The notes beneath the pieces are model-generated. The model searched no databases. It was not told the origin of the DNA and was given only the letters and a program-made list of their open reading frames with translations. Of a stretch of 64,000 bases of DNA, positions 3,705 to 50,961 are shown in pieces. The stretch spans positions 1 to 64,000 of IMG/VR virus record IMGVR_UViG_3300046747_000672; one strand, written 5' to 3'. The stretch's first letter is position 1. The number at the start of each line of letters is the position of its first letter. This DNA is from a virus. The translations under genes were made by a program, and so were the position numbers.

Positions 3705-4175
3705 GTGGCAACCGGACTCAGCACGCCTTACGGCATCGGCCCGTACGGCCTCGGCACGCCGCCGACCGCGCCAACGCCGGGCGGTCTCGTGAACCGCGAC
3801 GCGAGCGGCGTGCAGCAAGGCTCCGTCGCCATCTCGCTCGACAACGCGTCGAAGGGCCAATACGTGTTCGACGCGTACGGCCGCCGACTCGGGTCCGGCA
3901 ACGTGCGGCACATGGCCACGCTTGCGCTGTCGACGGTGCGTGGCTCGAGCTGCGTGCCGGACCTCGGCGAGCGCTTCTCGGAGATCCGGAAGATCGAAGA
4001 CTCGTTCGAGAAGGAGCAAGCGGCGCGCATCACCGAAGCGCTGAGTTCCATGGTCGAGCGCAAGATCATCACCATCGACGCGATCACGGTTGACCCAGGA
4101 CAAGGCCACCCGGCGTCGACGCGCGTCCGCCTGACCGACCTCACGCAGAACATTCCGATCGATCTGGTTCTCTGA
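3705..4175 (+). CDS. Baseplate wedge/sheath initiator (gp25/gpW/Mu gp46-like)
   Basis: LST.RGS...PDLG...I.EAL..M motif; immediately upstream of baseplate J. Confidence 0.7.
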   Translation: MATGLSTPYGIGPYGLGTPPTAPTPGGLVNRDASGVQQGSVAISLDNASKGQYVFDAYGRRLGSGNVRHMATLALSTVRGSSCVPDLGERFSEIRKIEDSFEKEQAARITEALSSMVERKIITIDAITVDPGQGHPASTRVRLTDLTQNIPIDLVL

Positions 4176-5716
4176 TGGCAACCAAGCTCCTTGTCCCGTC
4201 GCCCGCAACAAGCCGCGACGCGATGCTGCGGACCATCCGCTCCGGGCTGATTCAGCGCGGCGTCACGAACCCGAACGTGACGAAGGATTCTGACTGGTTC
4301 GTCGCCACGACGGCCTACGCCGACCAGCTTTCGCCGGTCTACGCGAACCAGCAAGTTCTTGCCGACGATCTCATGCCGGACACGGCAGAAGACGTCGGCC
4401 TCATTCGCTGGCTCGACATCTTCGATCTTGCCCCCCGCGCCGCCCAGCCGGCATCAGGCAACATCGTACTTGATACGTCGGCGGCGACCTTCGTCGCGAC
4501 CGGCCGGCAACTCCTGGACGGCCAGGGGCAGACCTACGAGGTCACGACCGGTGGCACCTATTCGAACGGCGCAACGATTCCGGTCCGTGGCGTCTCGACA
4601 GGGAAGGGGACCGACCACCCGCAAGGCTACCCGCTCCAGTGGGTCGGCACCGTGCCGAGCTTCGCGAATCAGCGACAGCTCGTCGGTCTCGGCGGCCTCA
4701 CCGGCGGCGCCGACATCGACACGTCCGAGACGAGCCGCAACCGTCTCTTCGACTACATGCGGAACCCTCCGCAGGGCGCGAACTGGACGCAGATCGCAAC
4801 CTGGGCGGTCGAAGCGAGCGCGAGCGTCCAGGCGGCCTACGTCTACCGCGCCCTCAACGGCCCGGCGACGGTTGGCCTCTGCGTGCTCGGGGGGCTCTCG
4901 TACGACACATCGAACGGCTGGACCCGCGCGGTCCCTGACGCCGTCGTTGCCACGGTGGCCAGCTACGTCGCGGCGCGTATGGACCGAACGAACCTGGTCA
5001 CGACGACGCCGAAGGACACAGGGGGCGCTACGCCGGACGTGGACGCGTCGATCTCCATTGGCGTGTCGCTGCCGCTCTCGGTCGCGGGCGGCGGTCCTGG
5101 TGGCGGCTGGATTGACGCCGACCCATGGCCGGACCTCTCCACGGCTGCGACCCGCGTTTACGTGTCCTCGGTGACGTCCTCGACCGTCTTCACTCTGACC
5201 AGCGACGACCCTGGAAACTGCCCGACGTCCACGAAGCTCATCGCGGGCGAGACGCAGATCGCCTGGTTCTCGTCGACGCAGTTCGCCGATGGGCAGGACC
5301 CGATCGTAACCGCCACGGTGACCGCGGTGTCGGGCTCGACCGGCGCCATCCAGGTGACCGTGAGCGTCCCGTTCTCCGGCATCGCGTCGGGCGACTACGT
5401 GATGCCGAACTCGGTCAACGTTCAGACCTATGCCGCCGCGCTGCTCGCGTCGATGGGCGACATGGGCGCCGGGCAATGGACGAGCCATGCGCCGACGCTC
5501 ATTTTCGCTGCGCGCCGCCCGCTCGTGACCGCGTCGAATCCGTCGGACATCGGCCCGACGCTGCTGCGCGCGATCTCCGACGCGGGCGAAGAAGTGACCG
5601 ACGTCGCCTACCTCTACCGGAGCGCAACGAACCCTGGCGTTCCGGCCAACACCACGACGGCGTCGCCGTTCGTGTTCGTGCCGAAAACGTTCGCCCTCAT
5701 GAACAAGATCCCCTGA
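4175..5716 (+). CDS. Baseplate J/gp47-like protein
   Basis: LMPDTAE...L.RW, A.G.G, LTGGADIDT.E..R.RL...RNPPQGAN, GPATV motifs. Confidence 0.9.
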   Translation: MATKLLVPSPATSRDAMLRTIRSGLIQRGVTNPNVTKDSDWFVATTAYADQLSPVYANQQVLADDLMPDTAEDVGLIRWLDIFDLAPRAAQPASGNIVLDTSAATFVATGRQLLDGQGQTYEVTTGGTYSNGATIPVRGVSTGKGTDHPQGYPLQWVGTVPSFANQRQLVGLGGLTGGADIDTSETSRNRLFDYMRNPPQGANWTQIATWAVEASASVQAAYVYRALNGPATVGLCVLGGLSYDTSNGWTRAVPDAVVATVASYVAARMDRTNLVTTTPKDTGGATPDVDASISIGVSLPLSVAGGGPGGGWIDADPWPDLSTAATRVYVSSVTSSTVFTLTSDDPGNCPTSTKLIAGETQIAWFSSTQFADGQDPIVTATVTAVSGSTGAIQVTVSVPFSGIASGDYVMPNSVNVQTYAAALLASMGDMGAGQWTSHAPTLIFAARRPLVTASNPSDIGPTLLRAISDAGEEVTDVAYLYRSATNPGVPANTTTASPFVFVPKTFALMNKIP

Positions 5717-6883: not shown

Positions 6884-7834
6884 ATGACGATTCAGAAGAT
6901 GCGCGTCTCGCCGTACGGCGTGAACGATGAGCTCTTGTCCGTGGAGGTCAACCTCCTGAACGACCAGATGCCGGCGTTCGTCGATGGCGAGGATGGCGGT
7001 CTCTACGAGCCGACGACGCCCATCGCCATCGGCGGCAACGGCCTCACGTGCACAACGTTCTTCAGTACGTCAGCCGCGTGCAGCACGTTGCTCGACGGCA
7101 CAGTCGTGTTTCCGAACGGGTTCTCGTGCACGGGCACGTCGACAACGACGTTCGGCGACAACTCGGTCAGTATCGGTAGCGGTGGCGAGCTTACGGCGTA
7201 CTGCGACTCGTTTTTCAATGGCGATGTCACGTGCACGGCGGCGTCGAACGTCGCGCTCTCTGCCGGCGCTGGCGTGTTCACTTGCGGCAAGACCGCATCG
7301 TTCGGATCGACGGTGGCAATCAGCGGCGCCGTCACGTGCGGGTCGACGCTTGCTGTGGCCGGCGTCGCGACGTTCGCGGCGAAACCAGTGTTCTCGGATG
7401 GCCTAACGGTTGGCGCTGGCACTCACACCGTCGATTTCAACAATTCTACGACGAACATCGGCGGCACGCTGAATCTGTCCGCGATTGTGCGGCTCATCAG
7501 TTCGGCCCGTATCCAATACAGATATGTTGCCGGCGTCAACGCGAATCACACCTACACGATCGCAGACTGCGACATGATCGTGGTTCCGCCGAGCGGCTCG
7601 ACGACGACGCGCATCTACACCATCAGCAACACCGGGTGCTCCGGCGGCGAAGTGATCGAGATCTTCAACGGCAACTTTCCGACGCAGAGATTCTCGATCG
7701 TGCAGCATGACGGTGGCACCGCGATCGCCGACCTTGACGGCACGCTCGACTTCATTGGCGTCAAAATCGTGAATGACGGCAGCGGCAACGCAACAAGCGC
7801 GTGGAAGGTCGTTAGTGCGACGTCGGCGCCGTGA
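6884..7834 (+). CDS. Tail fibre-like beta-rich protein
   Basis: Gly/Ser/Thr-rich beta repeats; follows the gp48-like gene. Confidence 0.6.
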   Translation: MTIQKMRVSPYGVNDELLSVEVNLLNDQMPAFVDGEDGGLYEPTTPIAIGGNGLTCTTFFSTSAACSTLLDGTVVFPNGFSCTGTSTTTFGDNSVSIGSGGELTAYCDSFFNGDVTCTAASNVALSAGAGVFTCGKTASFGSTVAISGAVTCGSTLAVAGVATFAAKPVFSDGLTVGAGTHTVDFNNSTTNIGGTLNLSAIVRLISSARIQYRYVAGVNANHTYTIADCDMIVVPPSGSTTTRIYTISNTGCSGGEVIEIFNGNFPTQRFSIVQHDGGTAIADLDGTLDFIGVKIVNDGSGNATSAWKVVSATSAP

Positions 7835-22519: not shown

Positions 22520-22659
22520 GGCGATGCCCATTCGGGCAATAGGGCCCCCGCGGCGTCATCACCGCCAGGGAGGCTTGTCGACTCATTTTCCCAGACTTGC
22601 GTCTGCGTCGTCACGAGTCGGCGGAGACCTGAAAATCACAGTCCCGTACTGCGATTTTT

Positions 22660-22679
22660 GGTGCTGTCCTAATTTGCCC
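22660..22679 (+). repeat. Left terminal inverted repeat
   Basis: GGTGCTGTCCTAATTTGCCC. Confidence 0.93.
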
Positions 22680-22745
22680 AGCCTCGTGGCGGTCGGCCCC
22701 CGCTGCCCGTGACGTCGCGACGGAGCGTGGCTAGGCTTCGGTGCA

Positions 22746-23075
22746 ATGGTGCCGACCAAGATGAGCGGGACGACCCGATGGATCGAGTTCAACCCTGAAG
22801 CCTCCAAGGCCTTCGACGTTGTCGACGCCATCGTCTCAGACGAGCGGATCGCGTTCGATGCGAAGGACGGGCAGTACCAGTACGTCGTGAAGCTGGCGCC
22901 TGCTCCTGGGGAGCCCGTTCGGTGGACTGGCGACTGGGTCGGCAAACTACCCACCGACGGCGGCGGCCTGGTCGATGTCCGCCGCTACGACTCGAAGGAA
23001 GGCGGCGTGGCGCTGGTCGGCGTTTGGAAGGATGGCGAGAACGTGGTGGACTGGATCACGGAGCTCCGGCCGTAG
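22746..23075 (+). CDS. Hypothetical cargo protein
   Basis: TAGGCT -10 box 8 nt before ATG; protein-like composition. Confidence 0.6.
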   Translation: MVPTKMSGTTRWIEFNPEASKAFDVVDAIVSDERIAFDAKDGQYQYVVKLAPAPGEPVRWTGDWVGKLPTDGGGLVDVRRYDSKEGGVALVGVWKDGENVVDWITELRP

Positions 23076-23399
23076 ATGGGCAAGCACGACAACGTGCAGG
23101 ACGACGTCTCGGTCGAAGAGCTCCAGCGCGCGGTGGAACACTTGCACGGCTGCACCGCGACGTTCGTCGAAGCCGTCGAGGTCCGCGAGGAGCACGGCGG
23201 TAAGGTCATCTGGGAGGGCGCGGTGAAGATCTTCGACCTCGTCGGCCACCCGAAAGCGAAGCGCGCATATGCTTGGTCGTACGCGACGACAGGCACCAAG
23301 CGACGCTTCGTCGCGGTGCTCGGGTTGCCGCCCGTGGACTCGGCCGTGATGGCCGTCAGGGCGACGATCTTGGCGGACGAGAAGGCAAGTCGAGGCTGA
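23076..23399 (+). CDS. Conserved hypothetical cargo protein
   Basis: WEG.V..FDL.GHPKAKRAYAW...VL..PPV.S motif; abuts the previous stop. Confidence 0.7.
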   Translation: MGKHDNVQDDVSVEELQRAVEHLHGCTATFVEAVEVREEHGGKVIWEGAVKIFDLVGHPKAKRAYAWSYATTGTKRRFVAVLGLPPVDSAVMAVRATILADEKASRG

Positions 23400-23450
23400 T
23401 CGCGCGATTTAGTCCTAGAACTAAACGGCATTTCGCTTCATGCTGGACAG

Positions 23451-23539
23451 CGGAAGGTGGTGGAATCGAACCACCGGGCGCGCGAACGCCCGCCAGGGCA
23501 TGTAGAGGACCCAGTTTTTCGCCGTTTCGGGCACCTTCC
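23451..23539 (-). ncRNA. tRNA-like RNA B (8/4 or 7/5 fold, long variable arm, CUA at the anticodon position)
   Basis: Acceptor GGAAGGT(G)/(C)ACCTTCC+G; T arm (G)GTGG-TTCGATT-CCAC(C); V arm GGGCG/CGCCC; irregular D arm; imperfect anticodon stem; no encoded CCA. Confidence 0.7.
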
Positions 23540-23642
23540 TGGTCGGCACGGTACGAGTCGAACGTCGCAGGTGGCAGCCTGCGTCCCCTTCGGATGCGTG
23601 TCGTGCATCCCGCCAACCGAGGCAGGCAGGGGAACCGTGCCA
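23540..23642 (-). ncRNA. tRNA-like RNA A (9/3 fold, encoded ACCA, extra helix)
   Basis: 9-bp acceptor TGGCACGGT/ACCGTGCCG+ACCA; T arm ACG-TTCGACT-CGT; arms GGATGC/GCATCC (7-nt loop) and GCAGG/CCTGC; extra TCCCCT/AGGGGA helix. Confidence 0.7.
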
Positions 23643-23648
23643 GAATCG

Positions 23649-24452
23649 CTAGTTCTTCACCTCCTCGGCGTCATCGATCTGGGTCTCCAAGAAGGCGTTC
23701 ATGCGCTTCACGTCGGCCGCGGTGAAGTCGGGCGGGAGTGGAATGTCGATCACGCGTCCCCGCGATAGCTTGCACTTGTAGACAATGAAGTCCGCCGGAA
23801 CGTGAAGCGTCTGCGTCCCGGCTGGCGCGGCGGGCGATTTCGGCGTGTCCGCACTATTCTCCTTCGCGACCGCGGGCGCGGCATCGAGACTGATCTGCCC
23901 CGATGGCGTCAGCAGCTCTGCCGTCTTCAGCGAATCAAGGAATGCGTCTGCGGCCATCAGGGCCATCGACTCCACAATACCGTGGTCGGTGTAGAGAAGG
24001 TTCCTGAGCCCCTCCCTCGTCGGAGCAGGGTGTCCACTGAATTGTTCGAGGAGCTTCGTGTACAACTCGGTGGTCCGCATCGCGGCGATCTTCGCGGCGC
24101 GCCCAGCCTCCGGCGTCAGAGGGTTCGTGACACGAAGGGCGAGGTCCGTCACCTTGAGGCGTCCGCTTTCGCCGCGCCCGACGCGTTCGATCAGGCCGTA
24201 CAGCATCGCGCTCGGCACCCCGTACGCCCACCGACGGTCCGTGTTCTTCGCGATCCCCAGCTCCCTCATTATCGCGTCGCTCGATGCCTCCTTGCCTCCG
24301 ACGCGCCGAACGGCCTGCACCATCTCGATCGCCTGCCCGATGCCGTAGTACGGGTACTTCGTTTCGCTTCGAGCTTTGCCATCTCCCGAAGCCACGTTTT
24401 CTGGTCGCTGCGAATCCGACCCGTTTCCCCCCGCTGCATTCTGGTCGACCAT
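23649..24452 (-). CDS. Uncharacterised 267-aa protein, probably winged-helix nucleic-acid binding
   Basis: YPYY...AIE...GG...I..ELG...AMLYGLIER...VTDLA pattern; GAGG RBS; stop 6 nt upstream of the tRNA-like pair. Confidence 0.75.
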   Translation of the reverse strand: MVDQNAAGGNGSDSQRPENVASGDGKARSETKYPYYGIGQAIEMVQAVRRVGGKEASSDAIMRELGIAKNTDRRWAYGVPSAMLYGLIERVGRGESGRLKVTDLALRVTNPLTPEAGRAAKIAAMRTTELYTKLLEQFSGHPAPTREGLRNLLYTDHGIVESMALMAADAFLDSLKTAELLTPSGQISLDAAPAVAKENSADTPKSPAAPAGTQTLHVPADFIVYKCKLSRGRVIDIPLPPDFTAADVKRMNAFLETQIDDAEEVKN

Positions 24453-24623
24453 GACGTTGAACCTCGTGTCCAGAATCTATCCGAACCTAACCGGCGACGT
24501 CAGTAGATTTGATATTTTCGTTAGGCGTGGCGTTAGATTGTCAGCCGAACCGGTCAGAATAAAATAAGTTTTGATCTGATAAACTGCCGTACTAATTCAT
24601 ATTTTTGTTCTAGACTCCGGTGC

Positions 24624-24851
24624 ATGTCGTCGAGGTCAATCGCCAGAGTCGTTGGGCTGTCTGAGTTGATGGAGTCATTCGACGGGATGGCAAGAAGCGT
24701 GTTCGGGATGTCTGGATCCGAATTCGAGATGGCTTATTACGCTGGAATCATTGCTGATTCTGGTGAATTACGGGACCTCGCCTCTGTGCTATCGCTCATC
24801 GAGCGACTCCGTGAGCGAGATAAGATCGTCAGGATTGGACGACCTCTTTGA
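24624..24851 (+). CDS. Small hypothetical protein (low GC)
   Basis: TAGACT -10 box 7 nt before ATG; divergent from the 267-aa gene. Confidence 0.5.
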   Translation: MSSRSIARVVGLSELMESFDGMARSVFGMSGSEFEMAYYAGIIADSGELRDLASVLSLIERLRERDKIVRIGRPL

Positions 24852-24866
24852 TTCCGACAGACTCAC

Positions 24867-25067
24867 CTATGAATCGGTCGCTGCCGCGACAACCTTTCGG
24901 ATCCAGTCCGAAAGAGCGAGCCCAGACTTCTCGGCCGCCGTCTCGGCCGCGTCCCGCTCCGCCTGCGTCCACCGCAACGTGAGCGCCGCCGCCTTTCGCT
25001 CCTCTGGCGCCTTGGGCGGCCTCCCCATCCTCTTCTTCGGTGTCTTGCTCGCTTTGCGTTGGCTCAC
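24867..25067 (-). CDS. Ribbon-helix-helix-type DNA-binding protein
   Basis: GRPPK...LTLRWTQAERDAAETAAEKSGLALSDWIR; GTG overlaps the transposase TGA. Confidence 0.75.
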   Translation of the reverse strand: MSQRKASKTPKKRMGRPPKAPEERKAAALTLRWTQAERDAAETAAEKSGLALSDWIRKVVAAATDS

Positions 25068-25906
25068 GATCGCCCCACATTCATGGCCGCGTCGAGCAGG
25101 TCGTCTATCGACCACAGCGTCGCTGTGATACCTGCGGCCATCGCTGGCGTCGTGCGAAGCGTCGTGTGCCGTCGCACGAAGTTATAGAAACCGAAGTGAA
25201 GCGCGGTCGCCGCAACGTGGTTCTCGAACTTCTTCGAGTGCGCGTTGGTGAGGCGTGTGTACCGGCGAACGCCCATGCGCACCGTGAGGTTCTGGCGCTC
25301 GACGTAGGACGTCGAAACGAGCTCGGCGACGGGCTCGCCAAAGATCGGCGTCTTCTCCGTGCCCGTGACCTTGGGCGGCGAGTACCTACCAGGACCGGTG
25401 GCTTCGGCCTCGTACGATTTTACGAGCGTCGCGTAGTCGACGCCTTTATCTGCGAAGGCACCGCGGATCGCCTCGACGTACGTGCGGAGTCCGTCCGTCG
25501 TGACCTGCACGCGGTAGCGAAGACGCGAGGCGAGGTCCGCCACGAACGCATCGGTATGCGCTGCGTCGCGTTTCCCAACGAGGAACGATGGGACGAGCTT
25601 CGTTTCCGCGTCGAGCGCGACGAAGGTCCACGTGTCGCCGATGCGGGAGGAATCATCTTCCGGAAGGACGTGACGTTGCTTCTTGCCGACGAACGCCCAG
25701 AGCTCGTCCAGCTCCAGCCGCTCGCAAGCAAGGTCGCGCATCGTCGCGTTGAGCAGGTCAGCGCAGCCGTTCCCGACACGGACCATGAGGCGAAGGATCG
25801 TGTCCCGATGCACGCTAGTCATCCGCTCGATCGAGCGGGCGGAGTTCCCCTCCACGAGGGCCGAGAGGATCGCGATCTGCTTCTCACGGGGAAGAACGTT
25901 GCTCAT
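25064..25906 (-). CDS. IS1-family DDE transposase (single ORF)
   Basis: N-term HTH LVEGNSARSIER; ELDELW (D), TTDG (D), TSYVERQNLT.RM..RR.TRLTN..SKK (E); TPAMAAG. Confidence 0.92.
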   Translation of the reverse strand: MSNVLPREKQIAILSALVEGNSARSIERMTSVHRDTILRLMVRVGNGCADLLNATMRDLACERLELDELWAFVGKKQRHVLPEDDSSRIGDTWTFVALDAETKLVPSFLVGKRDAAHTDAFVADLASRLRYRVQVTTDGLRTYVEAIRGAFADKGVDYATLVKSYEAEATGPGRYSPPKVTGTEKTPIFGEPVAELVSTSYVERQNLTVRMGVRRYTRLTNAHSKKFENHVAATALHFGFYNFVRRHTTLRTTPAMAAGITATLWSIDDLLDAAMNVGRS

Positions 25907-25913
25907 GATACTT

Positions 25914-25941
25914 ATTGTATCGCATAAATGCCACGTGGCAA
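25914..25941 (-). promoter_or_regulatory. Transposase sigma70-type promoter with palindromic operator
   Basis: TTGCCA-N16-TACAAT-N7-ATG; perfect palindrome TGCCACGTGGCA (25929-25940) over the -35 box. Confidence 0.7.
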
Positions 25942-25979
25942 GAACCCCTTTTTGCGACGCAATAAATTGGCCGCCCGGT

Positions 25980-26465
25980 CTATGCCATCGGATGCGATTC
26001 CCAGTGCGCTTGCCGCGAGCGCATGCCGACGCGAAACGGCTTTGGCGACGAAGCAATCTCGTGGAGAGTTTCGGCCGGATAATGCGTGGCCGGTTTCTCG
26101 TTGGCGACCAGTAGGCGCAGCATGCGATCACATGTCACGCCAATCTCGTCGTGATCGTTTTCCCAGCGCGAAAGCGTGGCCGGGTCGATGCCCATGCGCT
26201 GAGCAAGATCTCGCCCACTCAGCCCAATAGACTTCCGCAAGAATTTGATCTCGTCCCCCGTGAATCTAGTGGGCTTCTGAATCAGAGCCATCGCGATAGA
26301 CTTGTGGAGCCCTTCAATGTTTGAGATCGCGACTTCAGTGGCGCCGCACTTTCCACAACGCCGGACGGGGACATCGCAGAGGGTCACGTAAGGGAGACCG
26401 CACTCCGCGTATTTGTAGTTCTCCGTCGTTTCCGTAAGCCTATTGCCACACTCGGTGCATTTCAT
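25980..26465 (-). CDS. MqsA/YgiT-type antitoxin (zinc finger + XRE HTH)
   Basis: MKCTECG...RCGKCG; EIKFLRKSIGLSGRDLAQRMGIDPATLSRWEN. Confidence 0.88.
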   Translation of the reverse strand: MKCTECGNRLTETTENYKYAECGLPYVTLCDVPVRRCGKCGATEVAISNIEGLHKSIAMALIQKPTRFTGDEIKFLRKSIGLSGRDLAQRMGIDPATLSRWENDHDEIGVTCDRMLRLLVANEKPATHYPAETLHEIASSPKPFRVGMRSRQAHWESHPMA

Positions 26466-26797
26466 CGATGCTTCCTCCATGCCGTGGCGATGTACAGTTC
26501 TGTTCGGCTTCGAAAGCCAACGATCACGCACATCCTTGGAGTTTCTATGTGGTGCCTCCAGCACCCATTCTCCCATTCGGCCTCACTGACAACGCCAGCG
26601 CGCAAAATGTTCGTCACGTCCACCATGGATAGATTGTCCTTCTCCATCTCCCTCAATGCGTGCCCCTTCGGGGGCACGACGAATCCTCCAGAAAGGATGG
26701 CAGTGATGACCTCCTTCGCCTCCCTTGCCTTAAGCGGTTCGAGCAGTTCTACGTCATCTCCGTCTTGATCTTTAGTCAACGCTTGTCCTCCGGTCAA
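26462..26797 (-). CDS. DUF4258-family toxin (RelE-like RNase); start uncertain
   Basis: HALREMEKDNLSMVDVTNILRAG...IATAW; stop overlaps the antitoxin ATG. Confidence 0.8.
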   Translation of the reverse strand: MTGGQALTKDQDGDDVELLEPLKAREAKEVITAILSGGFVVPPKGHALREMEKDNLSMVDVTNILRAGVVSEAEWENGCWRHHIETPRMCVIVGFRSRTELYIATAWRKHR

Positions 26798-26841
26798 GGC
26801 CTAGACCAACGGGTTCGTTTTCGGCAAATTGTCGAATCTAC

Positions 26842-26857
26842 TTGACCGTCAGGTCAA
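26842..26857. promoter_or_regulatory. Inverted repeat, likely TA operator
   Basis: TTGACC-GTCA-GGTCAA upstream of the toxin gene. Confidence 0.5.
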
Positions 26858-26904
26858 CTGCCTAGCTCGACTTCGCTGGGCATAAATACGCCGCAGCGCA
26901 TCGC

Positions 26905-27225
26905 TCACCGACTCCCGCAGAACGGGCACGGCTGCGGCCCGGGCCACCTGCCGGCTAGGATCTGTTCGACGGGCGCCCAAGCGATCCTCGCCACGCAGAG
27001 CGCCATGCCAGGGCTCACCCGATGCTTCGCTTCGGTCGAGTGTCGCAGCGTGCGCAGTCCGACCCCCATCAGTTCGGCCACCCGCTTGCGCCCGTAGCGA
27101 GCTCGCAGCTTGCGGATCGCGGCCTTCACGTTCACCTGCTCGGCTGCCGTGAGTTGCCACGACCGCTTCGGTGGCGCGCCAGGCGCACGCCGCGACCAAG
27201 CCTGCTTCTCCCGAAGGATCGTCAT
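26905..27225 (-). CDS. HTH protein with C-terminal CPFC
   Basis: RKRVAELMGVGLRTLR HTH-like segment. Confidence 0.6.
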   Translation of the reverse strand: MTILREKQAWSRRAPGAPPKRSWQLTAAEQVNVKAAIRKLRARYGRKRVAELMGVGLRTLRHSTEAKHRVSPGMALCVARIAWAPVEQILAGRWPGPQPCPFCGSR

Positions 27226-27437
27226 GCGTCCGCGCGCCTCGCGTCAACGCGCGGAATGGCAAAAGCGCACGACGGCGCGCACTCGGCTGTCCTCCGCCTG
27301 CACGCGAAGCGCTTCCAGCACGATGTAGAGCGCCGCCGCGTGGCAGTTGCCAGCGGACGCATGCAGGCGGCTCGCGTCGCAGAGCTCGGCGAGCATCCTG
27401 TAGAGCTCGATGCCGATGGCCGGTGGCCTCGGTCGCT

Positions 27438-27656
27438 TCACGAACGCCCCCTCCTGCCCAGCCTCGCCGCGGTGGCCAGCCAAACGGCGTCGACCGCCTC
27501 TGCGTGCGCCTTCCAGGCAGCTTCGATGGCGACCATCAGCAGACGGAACGCATGGCGCTCGGCGGCCTTCAGTGCCGCGAGTTCGGCCATGGCTTCGTCT
27601 GCGACGTCGCGCCGGTTGCGCCCCTTCGGGCGGACTCGTACCTTCCCGTCGTTCAT
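27438..27656 (-). CDS. Small helical hypothetical protein
   Basis: GGAGGT RBS 6 nt before ATG. Confidence 0.5.
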   Translation of the reverse strand: MNDGKVRVRPKGRNRRDVADEAMAELAALKAAERHAFRLLMVAIEAAWKAHAEAVDAVWLATAARLGRRGRS

Positions 27657-27771
27657 CGGACTTACCTCCGGTGGACTGGGCTCCGAGCGTCTCTAGCGCT
27701 CGGGGCCCGCTTGGTTTCTGCCGGAGGGGTAGCAGTCGGAGCGGAGCGACGGGTGGGGAAAGGTGGCGGAC

Positions 27772-27791
27772 GGGCAAATTAGGACAGCACC
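27772..27791 (-). repeat. Right terminal inverted repeat
   Basis: GGGCAAATTAGGACAGCACC is the reverse complement of the left TIR. Confidence 0.93.
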
Positions 27792-27861
27792 CGATTTTTA
27801 GCTTTCTTCGGCGCGGAACGCAAGTCACCCAGGAAGTTCGTTCCGAATCGCAAGGATAGCA

Positions 27862-28086
27862 TTAGCCGCCCTTCCTCGGCAGCGTCGCGAAGTACAGCCG
27901 CAAAGCGCTCTCGACCACCGCGGACTGCGTAACGCCGAGCTCCGTACGGAGGACCGCGAGGATCGCCTTGCCCGCTTTGGAGAGGGAGAGCTCGACGCGG
28001 TACTGACCTCGCGCCGCCCGCTCCTCGTGCGAGATGGTGGGGCCGCTCGGGCCGGACCTGGACTTGCGCGCCTTCTGTGAGGTCAT
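27862..28086 (-). CDS. RHH-like small DNA-binding protein
   Basis: RVELSLS...IL..L..ELGVTQSAVVESALR. Confidence 0.6.
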   Translation of the reverse strand: MTSQKARKSRSGPSGPTISHEERAARGQYRVELSLSKAGKAILAVLRTELGVTQSAVVESALRLYFATLPRKGG

Positions 28087-49212: not shown

Positions 49213-50961
49213 CGTCACCTCTCCCACCCCTTCGCCCCGATCAGCCTCCGCACGTCGGCGGCCATCGACTCGCGCCCGGCTTCGTAGGCGGCGTTGAGAA
49301 GCGACGCGACGCGATCTGCGTCAATCCTGGCGACGTTGTCGCCGTCGTTCACGGACAGCGTTGCCGCTTCATTGAGCGGCTGCATGAAGTACAACGGCGG
49401 CGAGATCCTGGCCATCCCTGGCCCATGGAACTCGTGCGCGACGCCGAGCGCCGTCGTGGTCTCGGTGACGGAGTAGGGGAGCTTGGGGGCGGTCATCGAT
49501 TGAGAGCCTTTCGGAGCATCTCAACGCTTCCGCCGTTCGAGTTCGGATGGAACCGGAGCGCGACGCCTGCTGCGTACTCCAGTTCGGCGACGCGCGACTT
49601 AAGCGCGCGCGCCAGCTCACGAAGCTCCTCGTACTGCCCGACGTCGATCGTAGCCCGCCCCATCGACGACACTTCGCTCAGCAACCACAACTCTCGGTCG
49701 TTCATCGTCACTCCTCCGTCGTGCAAAGCCAGCCGCGCCCGCATCGCTTCACCCACTCGATGGCGGTGAGCTCGACGTCAGAACTGTCGTCGTCATCCAT
49801 GGTCGGTAGTCCCGTCTCGTTGTTGCACCAGATGGTCAGCTTCTCTTCGTCGTGGATGGCGAGCCAGTATTCCTCATCCTCACCCGCACCCGCCCCGGCG
49901 TTCGGGAAGCCCAGGGACTCCGCCCACGCGTTCCACGCGTCCTCCTTGCTTTCGGCGATGACCCACTCGCAGCGGTCGGGCGAGACATAGAGCTTCAGTG
50001 CGCCCACCTCACCCACGCGCCACCTCCAGTCCCAGGTCGATCTTCACAGCGCACGCCGCCGAGCACGCGAAGTGCGTCGCCTGGCGCCCTTGCGGCAACA
50101 GGTCGCGCCGCATCAGCCACCCGGGCGGCAGGCAGTCGACGGGCTCGCCGAGGTCGCTCGCGCTCACGCTGCCTTTCGCGACGGCGCAGCAGGACGCGCA
50201 CGTGAACGTCGTGGGGCGGAGCCAGTGGCGGAGGTCAGGCATCGGCGGCATCGTTCTCTCGTTCCTCTTCCGCGACCTCTTCGGCCCACTTCTCAACGTC
50301 AACTAGTGCCCGTTCGACGGCAGTCCCGAGAGTCGCGCCTTCCCATTCGTAACAGCGCGACGGTACGATGACGTAGCACCACAACTTCAGCTTGACCCAG
50401 TCGTCGCCCTTGGATGTCTCGAAGTGGTTCGGCAAGTGAATCTCCCACGTTCCCTCGTAGGTCTTGCAATGCGGCTCGAAACGAAGCTTGCGCGCAATGG
50501 CGGAGAACGTCGCCTGCCTCAACGCTTGGAAGGCGGCGATCTCGTCGCCGGAGAATAGCGGCTTGATGGGCTGGTTCACGGCGCCGTCCCCGCACAACGG
50601 TGGTCCCACATGGGAACCATCTTCGATGCGAAGTCCCAGATCGCGACCAGCATCTTGCCGAAGTTCTCGCCGTCGCCACGCCCGCACATGTGGAGGCTTT
50701 CTTCCTCTGCCATCCTGAACTCGAGGCAGCCGTCCCATTTCACGTACCCGCTCGCGAACCGTCCCGCCTCCTCGATGCGCTCGACCATGTCGAGCGACTC
50801 TCCGCCGCGTCGCCGGTAGAACCGTTGCGAGCGGTCGAGCGACCAGCCGATGATTTCGTAGACCTCGAAGTCGGCGCCGTGCTCCGAGCAACCTCCGAAT
50901 GGCGTCAGGCGGATCGCGAAGTTGATCGCGTCCATGTTGTGGGTGGTCCACTGGCGGTCGA

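Follow-up and report, generated by a model that had tools for sequence, protein, structure and literature searches.

Tandem irregular tRNA-like genes of the allo-tRNA type, one with a CUA anticodon loop, in a probable IS1-family cargo transposon inserted in a phage genome

The DNA analysed here, referred to as the window, is the first 64 kb (64,000 nt) of IMG/VR virus record IMGVR_UViG_3300046747_000672, a phage record of 113,762 b in all with a CheckV completeness of 83% and a host that probably belongs to the Myxococcota. Inserted in the phage is a 5.1-kb cargo transposon of about ten genes, probably of the IS1 family, in which, on the minus strand, the open reading frame (ORF) of the protein p267 is followed by two tRNA-like genes, RNA A and RNA B. 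The ORF closes with TAG at 23651-23649; RNA A (23642-23540) begins after a 6-nt spacer and abuts RNA B (23539-23451) with a spacer of zero. An earlier, sequence-only reading of this locus had described the gene and both RNAs, and their positions and features were borne out. The three are as follows.

23649..24452, minus strand: p267, an uncharacterised protein of 267 aa with a predicted N-terminal winged helix, helical domain and small C-terminal alpha/beta domain
23540..23642, minus strand: RNA A, an irregular tRNA-like gene of 9/3 type that has an additional helix and a long variable arm and encodes its ACCA end
23451..23539, minus strand: RNA B, an allo-tRNA-type tRNA-like gene of predicted serine identity with loop CUCUACA (anticodon CUA) and discriminator G

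The acceptor of RNA A has 9 bp (UGGCACGGU/ACCGUGCCG), a first pair U1.G and then eight Watson-Crick pairs, and its T arm has a 3-bp stem with the loop UUCGACU, giving a 9 + 3 bp acceptor/T branch free of mismatch. The variable arm is 6 bp and the 3′ end is ACCA. Two hairpins, one a 6-bp stem with the 7-nt loop ACGACAC and the other a small GCC/GGC hairpin, take the D-like and anticodon-like places, and in the minimum-free-energy fold both are enclosed by an extra 6-bp helix, UCCCCU/AGGGGA (10-15/54-59). The fold (-50.9 kcal/mol; z = -3.4 relative to shuffles) comprises about 30 base pairs over five helices, with one G.U and zero mismatches. It departs from a cloverleaf with U33, having a C at position 33 in the ACGACAC loop. 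RNA B pairs GGAAGGUG with CACCUUCC in its acceptor and has the T loop UUCGAUU, a 6-bp variable arm and discriminator G (fold z = -2.2); where tRNA-Sec-like D and anticodon arms might stand, this copy has a 3-bp D-like hairpin, an A5 linker and an anticodon stem of 3-4 bp. The proposed splits of acceptor and T stem, 9/3 in RNA A and 8/4 in RNA B, were thus confirmed, with one caveat: in the window's RNA B a single C can pair either with G8 or with the base before the T stem, which permits a 7/5 drawing as well. The folds likewise support the earlier view that both RNAs of this copy have aberrant D and anticodon parts. An acceptor/T branch of 12 bp, split 8/4 or 9/3, is the rule that defines allo-tRNAs (PMC5389517, in its available text; PMC7609411).

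Both strands of the 113,762-b record were scanned for GTTCRANYC sites at which acceptor and T strands, set at tRNA spacing, form a perfect 12-bp helix. Of 22 motif sites just two passed, RNA A and RNA B, and at the chance rate of 0.00067 per site, obtained from 200,000 random positions, 0.015 passing sites would be expected. ARAGORN made no call at either RNA, and neither matched Rfam at gathering score. With relaxed thresholds RNA B was recovered as a sub-threshold tRNA-Sec match (26 bits) and RNA A matched no tRNA model even at E <= 10. The sole ARAGORN call in the whole record, a 98-nt 'tRNA-Gln(CTG)' at 7224-7321 (+), lies inside a long ORF with high GC at third codon positions (GC3), has neither T-loop nor minihelix signature and is probably a false positive. 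That RNA A and RNA B are real irregular tRNA-like genes of the 9/3 and 8/4 allo-tRNA type is supported.

Relatives of RNA B lie 3′ of p267 homologs in six loci (L003, L004, L006, L007, L008 and L017; related loci are given L numbers throughout). Three viral contigs (L163, L228, L233) add further B-type RNAs, and L030 has a short form. A covariance model (R2) made from nine RNA B relatives, with the window copy left out, matched the window once, at 23451-23539 (-), with 52.3 bits and E 2.5e-9. In alignment A6, which holds 13 B-family members including short forms, 88.6% of cells pair compared with 70% after shuffling, both sides change in 15 of the 21 pairs, and the covariation score is 0.434, as against 0.146 shuffled and 0.07-0.10 with slid partners; the covariation that the sequence-only reading had named as a check is therefore present in the RNA B family. 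Acceptor pair 9 is formed, and T-stem pair 4 broken, in four of the eight full-length members, and the reverse holds in the other four; since the two pairs are mutually exclusive, the branch stays 12 bp. All eight have G1-C72, G2-C71 and A3-U70 and a variable arm of 5-8 bp, whose 5-bp core pairs in 39 of 40 cells with compensatory change at four of five positions. G73 is present in seven of the eight, L003 having U. Identity elements of tRNA-Ser include G73, G2-C71, A3-U70 and a long variable arm, and on these features RNA B is assigned to the allo-tRNA class with a predicted serine identity.

Of the helices of the B family, the anticodon stem pairs least well (34 of 48 cells over the eight full-length members, 78.7% in A6). 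Relatives have 5-bp D stems (L008, L017, L163) or a 6-bp anticodon stem (L004, L006), so that tRNA-Sec-like arms do occur in the family. Pattern searches added little: CTYTACA...GGTTCGANTCC matched 17 Myxococcota genomes, compared with 7 matches to the reversed control, and these are mostly chance matches, and GGAAGG...CCTTCC in IMG/VR recovered mostly ordinary phage tRNA-Ser genes and 8/4 tRNA-Ser(UGA).

The anticodon loop is CUYUACA or UUUUACA in the window (CUCUACA), L003, L004, L006, L007, L008, L017, L163 and L228; L233 has AUUUACA, and the short form of L030 has CUUUACA. Among the B relatives found, the anticodon position is always UUA or CUA and is followed by C37 and A38; ARAGORN reports tRNA-Stop(tta) for the copies in L004 and L006. 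A second, canonical Leu-like scaffold with UUA and A37 occurs in the sister elements L004, L006, L013, L021 and L277. In the first four of these it is a 7/5 tRNA with the loop CUUUAAA that stands in RNA A's place, 3 nt from B where B is present. Other sister elements have Ser-like tRNAs with GUA or AUA. With UUA/CUA and GUA/AUA carriers both represented, the tRNA set of the lineage centres on UAN codons (Tyr and two stops). The sequence-only reading had taken the RNAs for possible tRNA mimics; for RNA B, a pure mimic is countered by the constant UUA/CUA and by the second, canonical UUA scaffold. In the tRNA or tRNA-like genes that accompany related transposases in L004, L006, L021, L277, L262 and L249, the anticodons cluster on NUA (UUA, CUA, GUA, AUA), on Ser-like or Leu-like bodies.

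No full-length homolog of RNA A was found in IMG/VR (exact 19-mer), in 401 Myxococcota genomes (BLAST; short chance matches only) or in 2.56 Mb of related loci (blastn-short and a fuzzy motif search), and among the loci compared the 9/3 RNA A is seen only in the window. It is probably a second, more derived 9/3 tRNA-like RNA. A 341-nt contig from a soil metatranscriptome (run X10) is identical to the window over 23450-23568, which covers all of RNA B and the 3′ 29 nt of RNA A (T arm, 3′ acceptor strand and ACCA), and diverges on both sides. An RNA library therefore contains a sister locus that has a variant RNA A, and the contig hints at expression; gaps in the cover of the window by the RNA run do not count as evidence of silence. 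Directly 5′ of B, a long hairpin is found in L003, L008 and L228. In L007:4820-4912, L017:1860-1948, L009:1430-1500 and L016:1290-1364, RNA A is replaced by a conserved two-hairpin element (GCGCCC...CCGAGGCGC..TAAATATCGG..GGGCGC, then a second covarying stem), which may be another structured RNA.

The claim that the pair is transposon-borne was confirmed by perfect 20-bp inverted ends flanked by an 8-bp target duplication. To the left of the transposon lie phage genes for a baseplate-hub/transglycosylase protein and a head protein. In L007, a sister element has the p267 neighbours p75, the transposase, p107 and p111 between inverted ends of its own, with the duplication CGAAATCG. The remaining features of the window's element are listed here; HTH denotes helix-turn-helix.

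22660..22679, plus strand: left terminal inverted repeat GGTGCTGTCCTAATTTGCCC, perfect over 20 bp, preceded by the target duplication CGATTTTT at 22652-22659
23076..23399, plus strand: p107, a small alpha-beta4-alpha protein of 107 aa, convergent to RNA B
24624..24851, plus strand: p75, a small helical protein, divergent from p267 over an AT-rich 170-nt intergenic region
25064..25906, minus strand: predicted IS1-family single-ORF DDE transposase of about 280 aa with an N-terminal HTH (alignment A3)
25980..26797, minus strand: putative toxin-antitoxin cargo, a DUF4258-like ORF (26462..26797) and then an MqsA-family HTH antitoxin-like ORF (25980..26576)
26905..27243, minus strand: p111, a small HTH-like protein ending in a CPFCG half zinc-ribbon
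27772..27791, minus strand: right terminal inverted repeat, a perfect copy of GGTGCTGTCCTAATTTGCCC, followed by the target duplication CGATTTTT at 27792-27799

The transposase ORF as listed extends to 26131, and conservation begins at the ATG at 25906. Its matches to NCBIfam NF033558 (E 1e-16; 61 bits, below the cut-off of 100) and to Pfam DDE_Tnp_IS1 (27.3 bits; cut-off 24.1) point to a distant IS1-family DDE enzyme. Relatives are encoded in 159 viral contigs, of which 80 loci were examined; tRNA or tRNA-like genes lie within 2 kb of the transposase in 15 of the 80, with 20 matches compared with one in a reversed-sequence control. RNAs of about 68-71 nt were noted 100-300 nt upstream of related transposases (L249:4721-4788, L262:4828-4895, L229:4627-4695 and L246:4627-4697), often beside another tRNA. 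Their acceptor, GGGGCUG.../...CAGCUCCA, has an alanine-type G3:U70 and resembles in this the tRNA-like domain of transfer-messenger RNA (tmRNA).

The small protein p107 is present in L003, L006, L007, L008 and L030 and in nine of the 80 viral loci, and adjoins a B-type RNA in L007, L008, L228 and L233. Its AlphaFold 2 (AF2) model is a confident fold (predicted local distance difference test score, pLDDT, 88) with no match in the PDB. Matches to p75 in tblastn adjoin p267 in 11 distinct loci, and a promoter-like site lies near p75 at 24538-24565 (+). In this transposon sub-lineage p107 is a fixed gene, and p75 is the conserved partner of p267. For p111, tblastn matches were found in L003, L004, L006, L007, L009, L010, L021 and five viral loci, and its own sequence gives a weak Zn_ribbon_IS1595 match. 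No family in Pfam, PHROGs, NCBIfam or PADLOC was found for p267, p75 or p107, and the small proteins of the element matched none of the PADLOC defence models.

Homologs of p267 number 44, at 50-68% identity, all unnamed or mis-named; the closest (P0002-P0007) are 60-68% identical. They come from metagenome-assembled genomes (MAGs) of Myxococcales, Polyangiaceae and Kofleriaceae and from soil and peat metagenomes. The AF2 model of p267 (pLDDT 84) contains a MarR-like winged helix at residues 36-116 (Z 9), and fold searches returned a generic winged helix only; neither structure nor family searches gave anything closer. Short Cys-rich ORFs of about 30 aa (C.C...G.PV.IR...PIH) lie 3′ of two p267 homologs, at L009:1277-1372 and L015 ~3990-4080, and there are no tRNA-like RNAs there. 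In L005, a canonical tRNA-Pro(UGG) at 5398-5475 (-) lies 600 nt 3′ of a p267 homolog that has no transposase nearby; this homolog may belong to an island that integrated at a tRNA gene.

Gene order and orientation around p267 are shuffled among elements. In L003:3511-3790, L007:3575-3835 and L008:3541-3835, p75 and the transposase lie in one frame, with only 2-3 stops between them, within 8-14 codons; the window's transposase is inverted relative to p75. The MqsA-family ORF scores 75 bits with TIGR03830, above cut-off, and the DUF4258 match (E 7e-4) is below cut-off. By these matches the two ORFs are probably a toxin-antitoxin pair and extra cargo. The pair sits between p111 and the transposase and is absent from the sister elements examined. 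A contig from a DNA run (X3) joins 22520 to 27867 through 15 other letters, skipping the transposon and about 200 nt of flanks; with just 21 nt on the shorter side of its joint it was not counted as an empty site, and X3 may come from a transposon-free relative of the phage. Elsewhere in the window, at 49535-49622 (-), the Rfam gyrA RNA motif was matched below threshold (30.7 bits, gathering score 45; window-wide E 0.001).

We consider it probable that the two RNAs are transposon genes of the allo-tRNA class and that RNA B is a weak, serine-type reader of UAG. RNA A and RNA B would be co-transcribed, possibly at the 3′ end of the p267 mRNA. RNase P cutting at the first base of RNA B would leave RNA A with an exposed, encoded CCA, and 3′ trimming would free both. 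The seryl-tRNA synthetase (SerRS) of the host would charge RNA B, which would read UAG, as its UUA relatives would read UAA and UAG, at low efficiency. Such stop reading would be a selfish or accessory trait of the transposon.

Several observations weigh against this interpretation. Position 37 of elongator tRNAs is normally a purine. RNA B of the window has CUA and U33 and, with the rest of its family, C37 in place of the purine 37 of a suppressor loop, together with a C.U mismatch closing the loop; that C37 is kept makes efficient decoding doubtful. The anticodon stem of this copy consists of three G-C pairs, one G.U and mismatches, and the D arm is minimal. TAG ends about 31% of the likely genes of the phage, so that a strong amber suppressor would be costly. 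There is no sign of TAG recoding in the phage; ORF totals under other codes were uninformative, and pairs of ORFs in the same frame across a single stop number 15 (TAG) and 17 (TGA), which is what packed genes would be expected to give. 'Private suppression' was considered and rejected, the backbone genes being without an in-frame stop that matches the anticodon. (The L004 transposase has three in-frame stops, but in a decayed C-terminus.) Whether B is present also shows no correlation with the p267 stop codon. On the strand of the RNAs no promoter-like site was found. RNA A has neither a nonsense anticodon nor U33 and is an orphan within the sequences searched, so that any function, and even selection on it, would be conjectural. 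The X10 contig may derive from DNA and comes from another locus.

Part of this evidence would suit a different explanation, which we regard as possible and distinctly the less probable, namely that these are structured RNAs that do not decode. Their tRNA shape would serve as a handle for RNase P, RNase Z and the CCA-adding enzyme, or for a protein of the transposon or the host, and the nonsense 'anticodon' loop would be a recognition motif instead of a codon reader. The RNAs might then allow the p267 mRNA to be cut after its stop codon, insulate p267 from p107, or act as a cofactor or regulator of transposition. In its favour, C37 is conserved, and the CUYUACA loop is kept even in the distant short form of L030, which has no variable arm. 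The weakness of the anticodon stem across the B family points the same way, as does RNA A, whose anticodon loop is unusable (C33) and whose helices are nonetheless perfect and CCA encoded. So does the position before B, which is filled by varied structured elements, among them the long hairpin of L003, L008 and L228. Related irregular tRNAs and allo-tRNA(UAU) species also failed in E. coli translation, as given in the available text of Mukai et al. (PMC5389517). Against this stands the convergence of two unrelated scaffolds of the lineage, one of them fully canonical with A37, on UUA/CUA, for which a role as a processing handle alone is insufficient. The serine identity set, moreover, is retained throughout the B family.

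The sequence-only reading had gone further and proposed that p267 and two tRNA mimics form a conflict module, mobilised into the phage by an insertion sequence (IS), in which the RNAs are ligands, decoys or antitoxins. At the locus itself the arrangement is suggestive: the RNAs begin 6 nt after the p267 stop on the same strand, no terminator was found between them, and winged-helix domains are capable of binding RNA. The test lies in the company that p267 keeps. Across 16 distinct p267 homolog loci, window included, a B-type RNA lies 3′ of the gene in seven, a canonical tRNA(UUA) only in one, and neither in eight (L005, L009, L010, L011, L014, L015, L020 and L022); the seven speak for the module and the eight against it. 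Within these loci B is present where the transposase is present. Conversely, B-type RNAs occur without p267 in L228, L233 and L163; in L228 (CUA) and L233 (UUA) the RNA is convergent to p107 as in the window, with an unrelated gene upstream. Where p267 and B are both present, the gap between them ranges from 6 to about 370 nt and holds varied elements. Close relatives of p267 and of p75 are absent from all 80 viral loci examined around transposase relatives, and a profile search of them found one distant p267-like ORF, in L227.

The B family thus goes with the transposon lineage, that is, with the transposase and p107. The p75-p267 pair, by its distribution, appears to be a separate, swappable passenger module that is also found elsewhere. 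Because p267 often lacks the RNAs, B occurs without p267, and B tracks the transposase and p107, a dedicated unit of protein and mimics is not supported, and the linkage data do not uphold a new conflict system made of them. For a decoy or antitoxin role there is no support so far, p267 matching no defence or toxin family, PADLOC included, and resembling only winged-helix proteins. We therefore hold the conflict module to be improbable. Least credible of all, and very unlikely, is that the pair are functionless, decayed tRNA pseudogenes or chance tRNA-like folds: ARAGORN and Rfam missed both, B has degenerate D and anticodon arms in the window copy and RNA A is an orphan, but this has to be set against the chance expectation for such sites, the strong covariation of the B family, the roughly 30 bp of RNA A with one G.U and no mismatch, which is unlike decay, and the RNA-library contig identical over B.

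A bolder extension, which we find doubtful, is that the NUA-anticodon tRNA-like genes of this IS1 lineage (B type, Leu-like UUA and Ser-like GUA/AUA) are a working part of the transposon and not passive cargo. Their possible roles include a read-through switch or addiction trait, or replacement or decoy tRNAs against nucleases that cut UAN tRNAs; RNA A would then be a CCA-ended, non-decoding partner freed by the processing of RNA B. If the RNAs are expressed and charged, widespread jumping genes, to judge from the 159 viral contigs with transposase relatives, move stop-reading serine-type tRNAs between soil bacteria and phages. They would be a natural source of noise in the genetic code and a ready set of orthogonal tRNA scaffolds. 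The element also offers a concrete genomic home, an IS1-type transposon with defined ends, for the allo-tRNAs and the polycistrons of irregular tRNAs that Mukai et al. described in 2017.

Classical nonsense suppressors include supD (Ser-CUA) and supF/supC (Tyr-CUA/UUA), and there are also the suppressor tRNAs of stop-codon-recoded phages. Like these, RNA B has CUA on a class II body (its relatives CUA or UUA) and lies in a phage genome; unlike them, it belongs to a phage without a recoding signal, has C37 where they have a modified A37, is built on an 8/4 or 9/3 body and is borne by a transposon. Single-ORF members of the IS1 family have inverted ends starting GGnnnTG, an 8-bp duplication and passenger genes (ISfinder). 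The present element shares a probably related DDE transposase, GGnnnTG ends, the 8-bp duplication and passenger genes, and differs in a transposase below the NCBIfam cut-off (61 as against 100 bits), a length of 5.1 kb and about ten genes. To our knowledge, published accounts of the IS1 family do not include recurrent tRNA-like cargo.

The closest known RNAs are described in Mukai et al. 2017, Nucleic Acids Res 45:2776 (PMC5389517), to whose available text the following comparison is confined. Allo-tRNAs with an 8/4 or 9/3 structure and CUA insert Ser at amber codons in E. coli, and the related irregular tRNAs and allo-tRNA(UAU) species were inactive in E. coli translation. The same text ties irregular tRNAs tentatively to transposable elements and toxin-antitoxin genes. 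Species with a 9/3 structure and an ochre anticodon, and irregular-tRNA polycistrons, are described both there and in PMC7609411. As in allo-tRNAs, the 12-bp branch of RNA B is split 8/4 or 9/3, the variable arm is long, position 73 is G and the anticodon is unrelated to identity; soil and peat metagenomes as the source, and the association with transposable elements and toxin-antitoxin genes, are shared as well. In contrast, the D arm of the window's RNA B is minimal and its anticodon stem weak, where theirs are long and tRNA-Sec-like, and its C37 is conserved. Their allo-tRNAs are from Acidobacteria, whereas the lineage described here is found in Myxococcales MAGs and their phages, and the carrier here is an explicit IS1-family transposon with intact ends and a target duplication.

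The irregular-tRNA polycistrons of the same text include tRNA0/tRNA1/tRNA2, E-loop and five-stem-junction forms and come from forest and peat metatranscriptomes (PMC5389517). RNA A and RNA B resemble them as tandem, close-set genes; in some of theirs, too, an additional loop or helix is placed between acceptor stem and D stem, others may be nonsense suppressors, and toxin-antitoxin genes lie near them as well. The available text mentions no zero spacer with an encoded ACCA, and the extra 6-bp helix of RNA A may differ in enclosing both hairpins. New relative to that text are the IS1-family cargo transposon with its ends, the link to p107, the UAN series and the architecture of RNA A.

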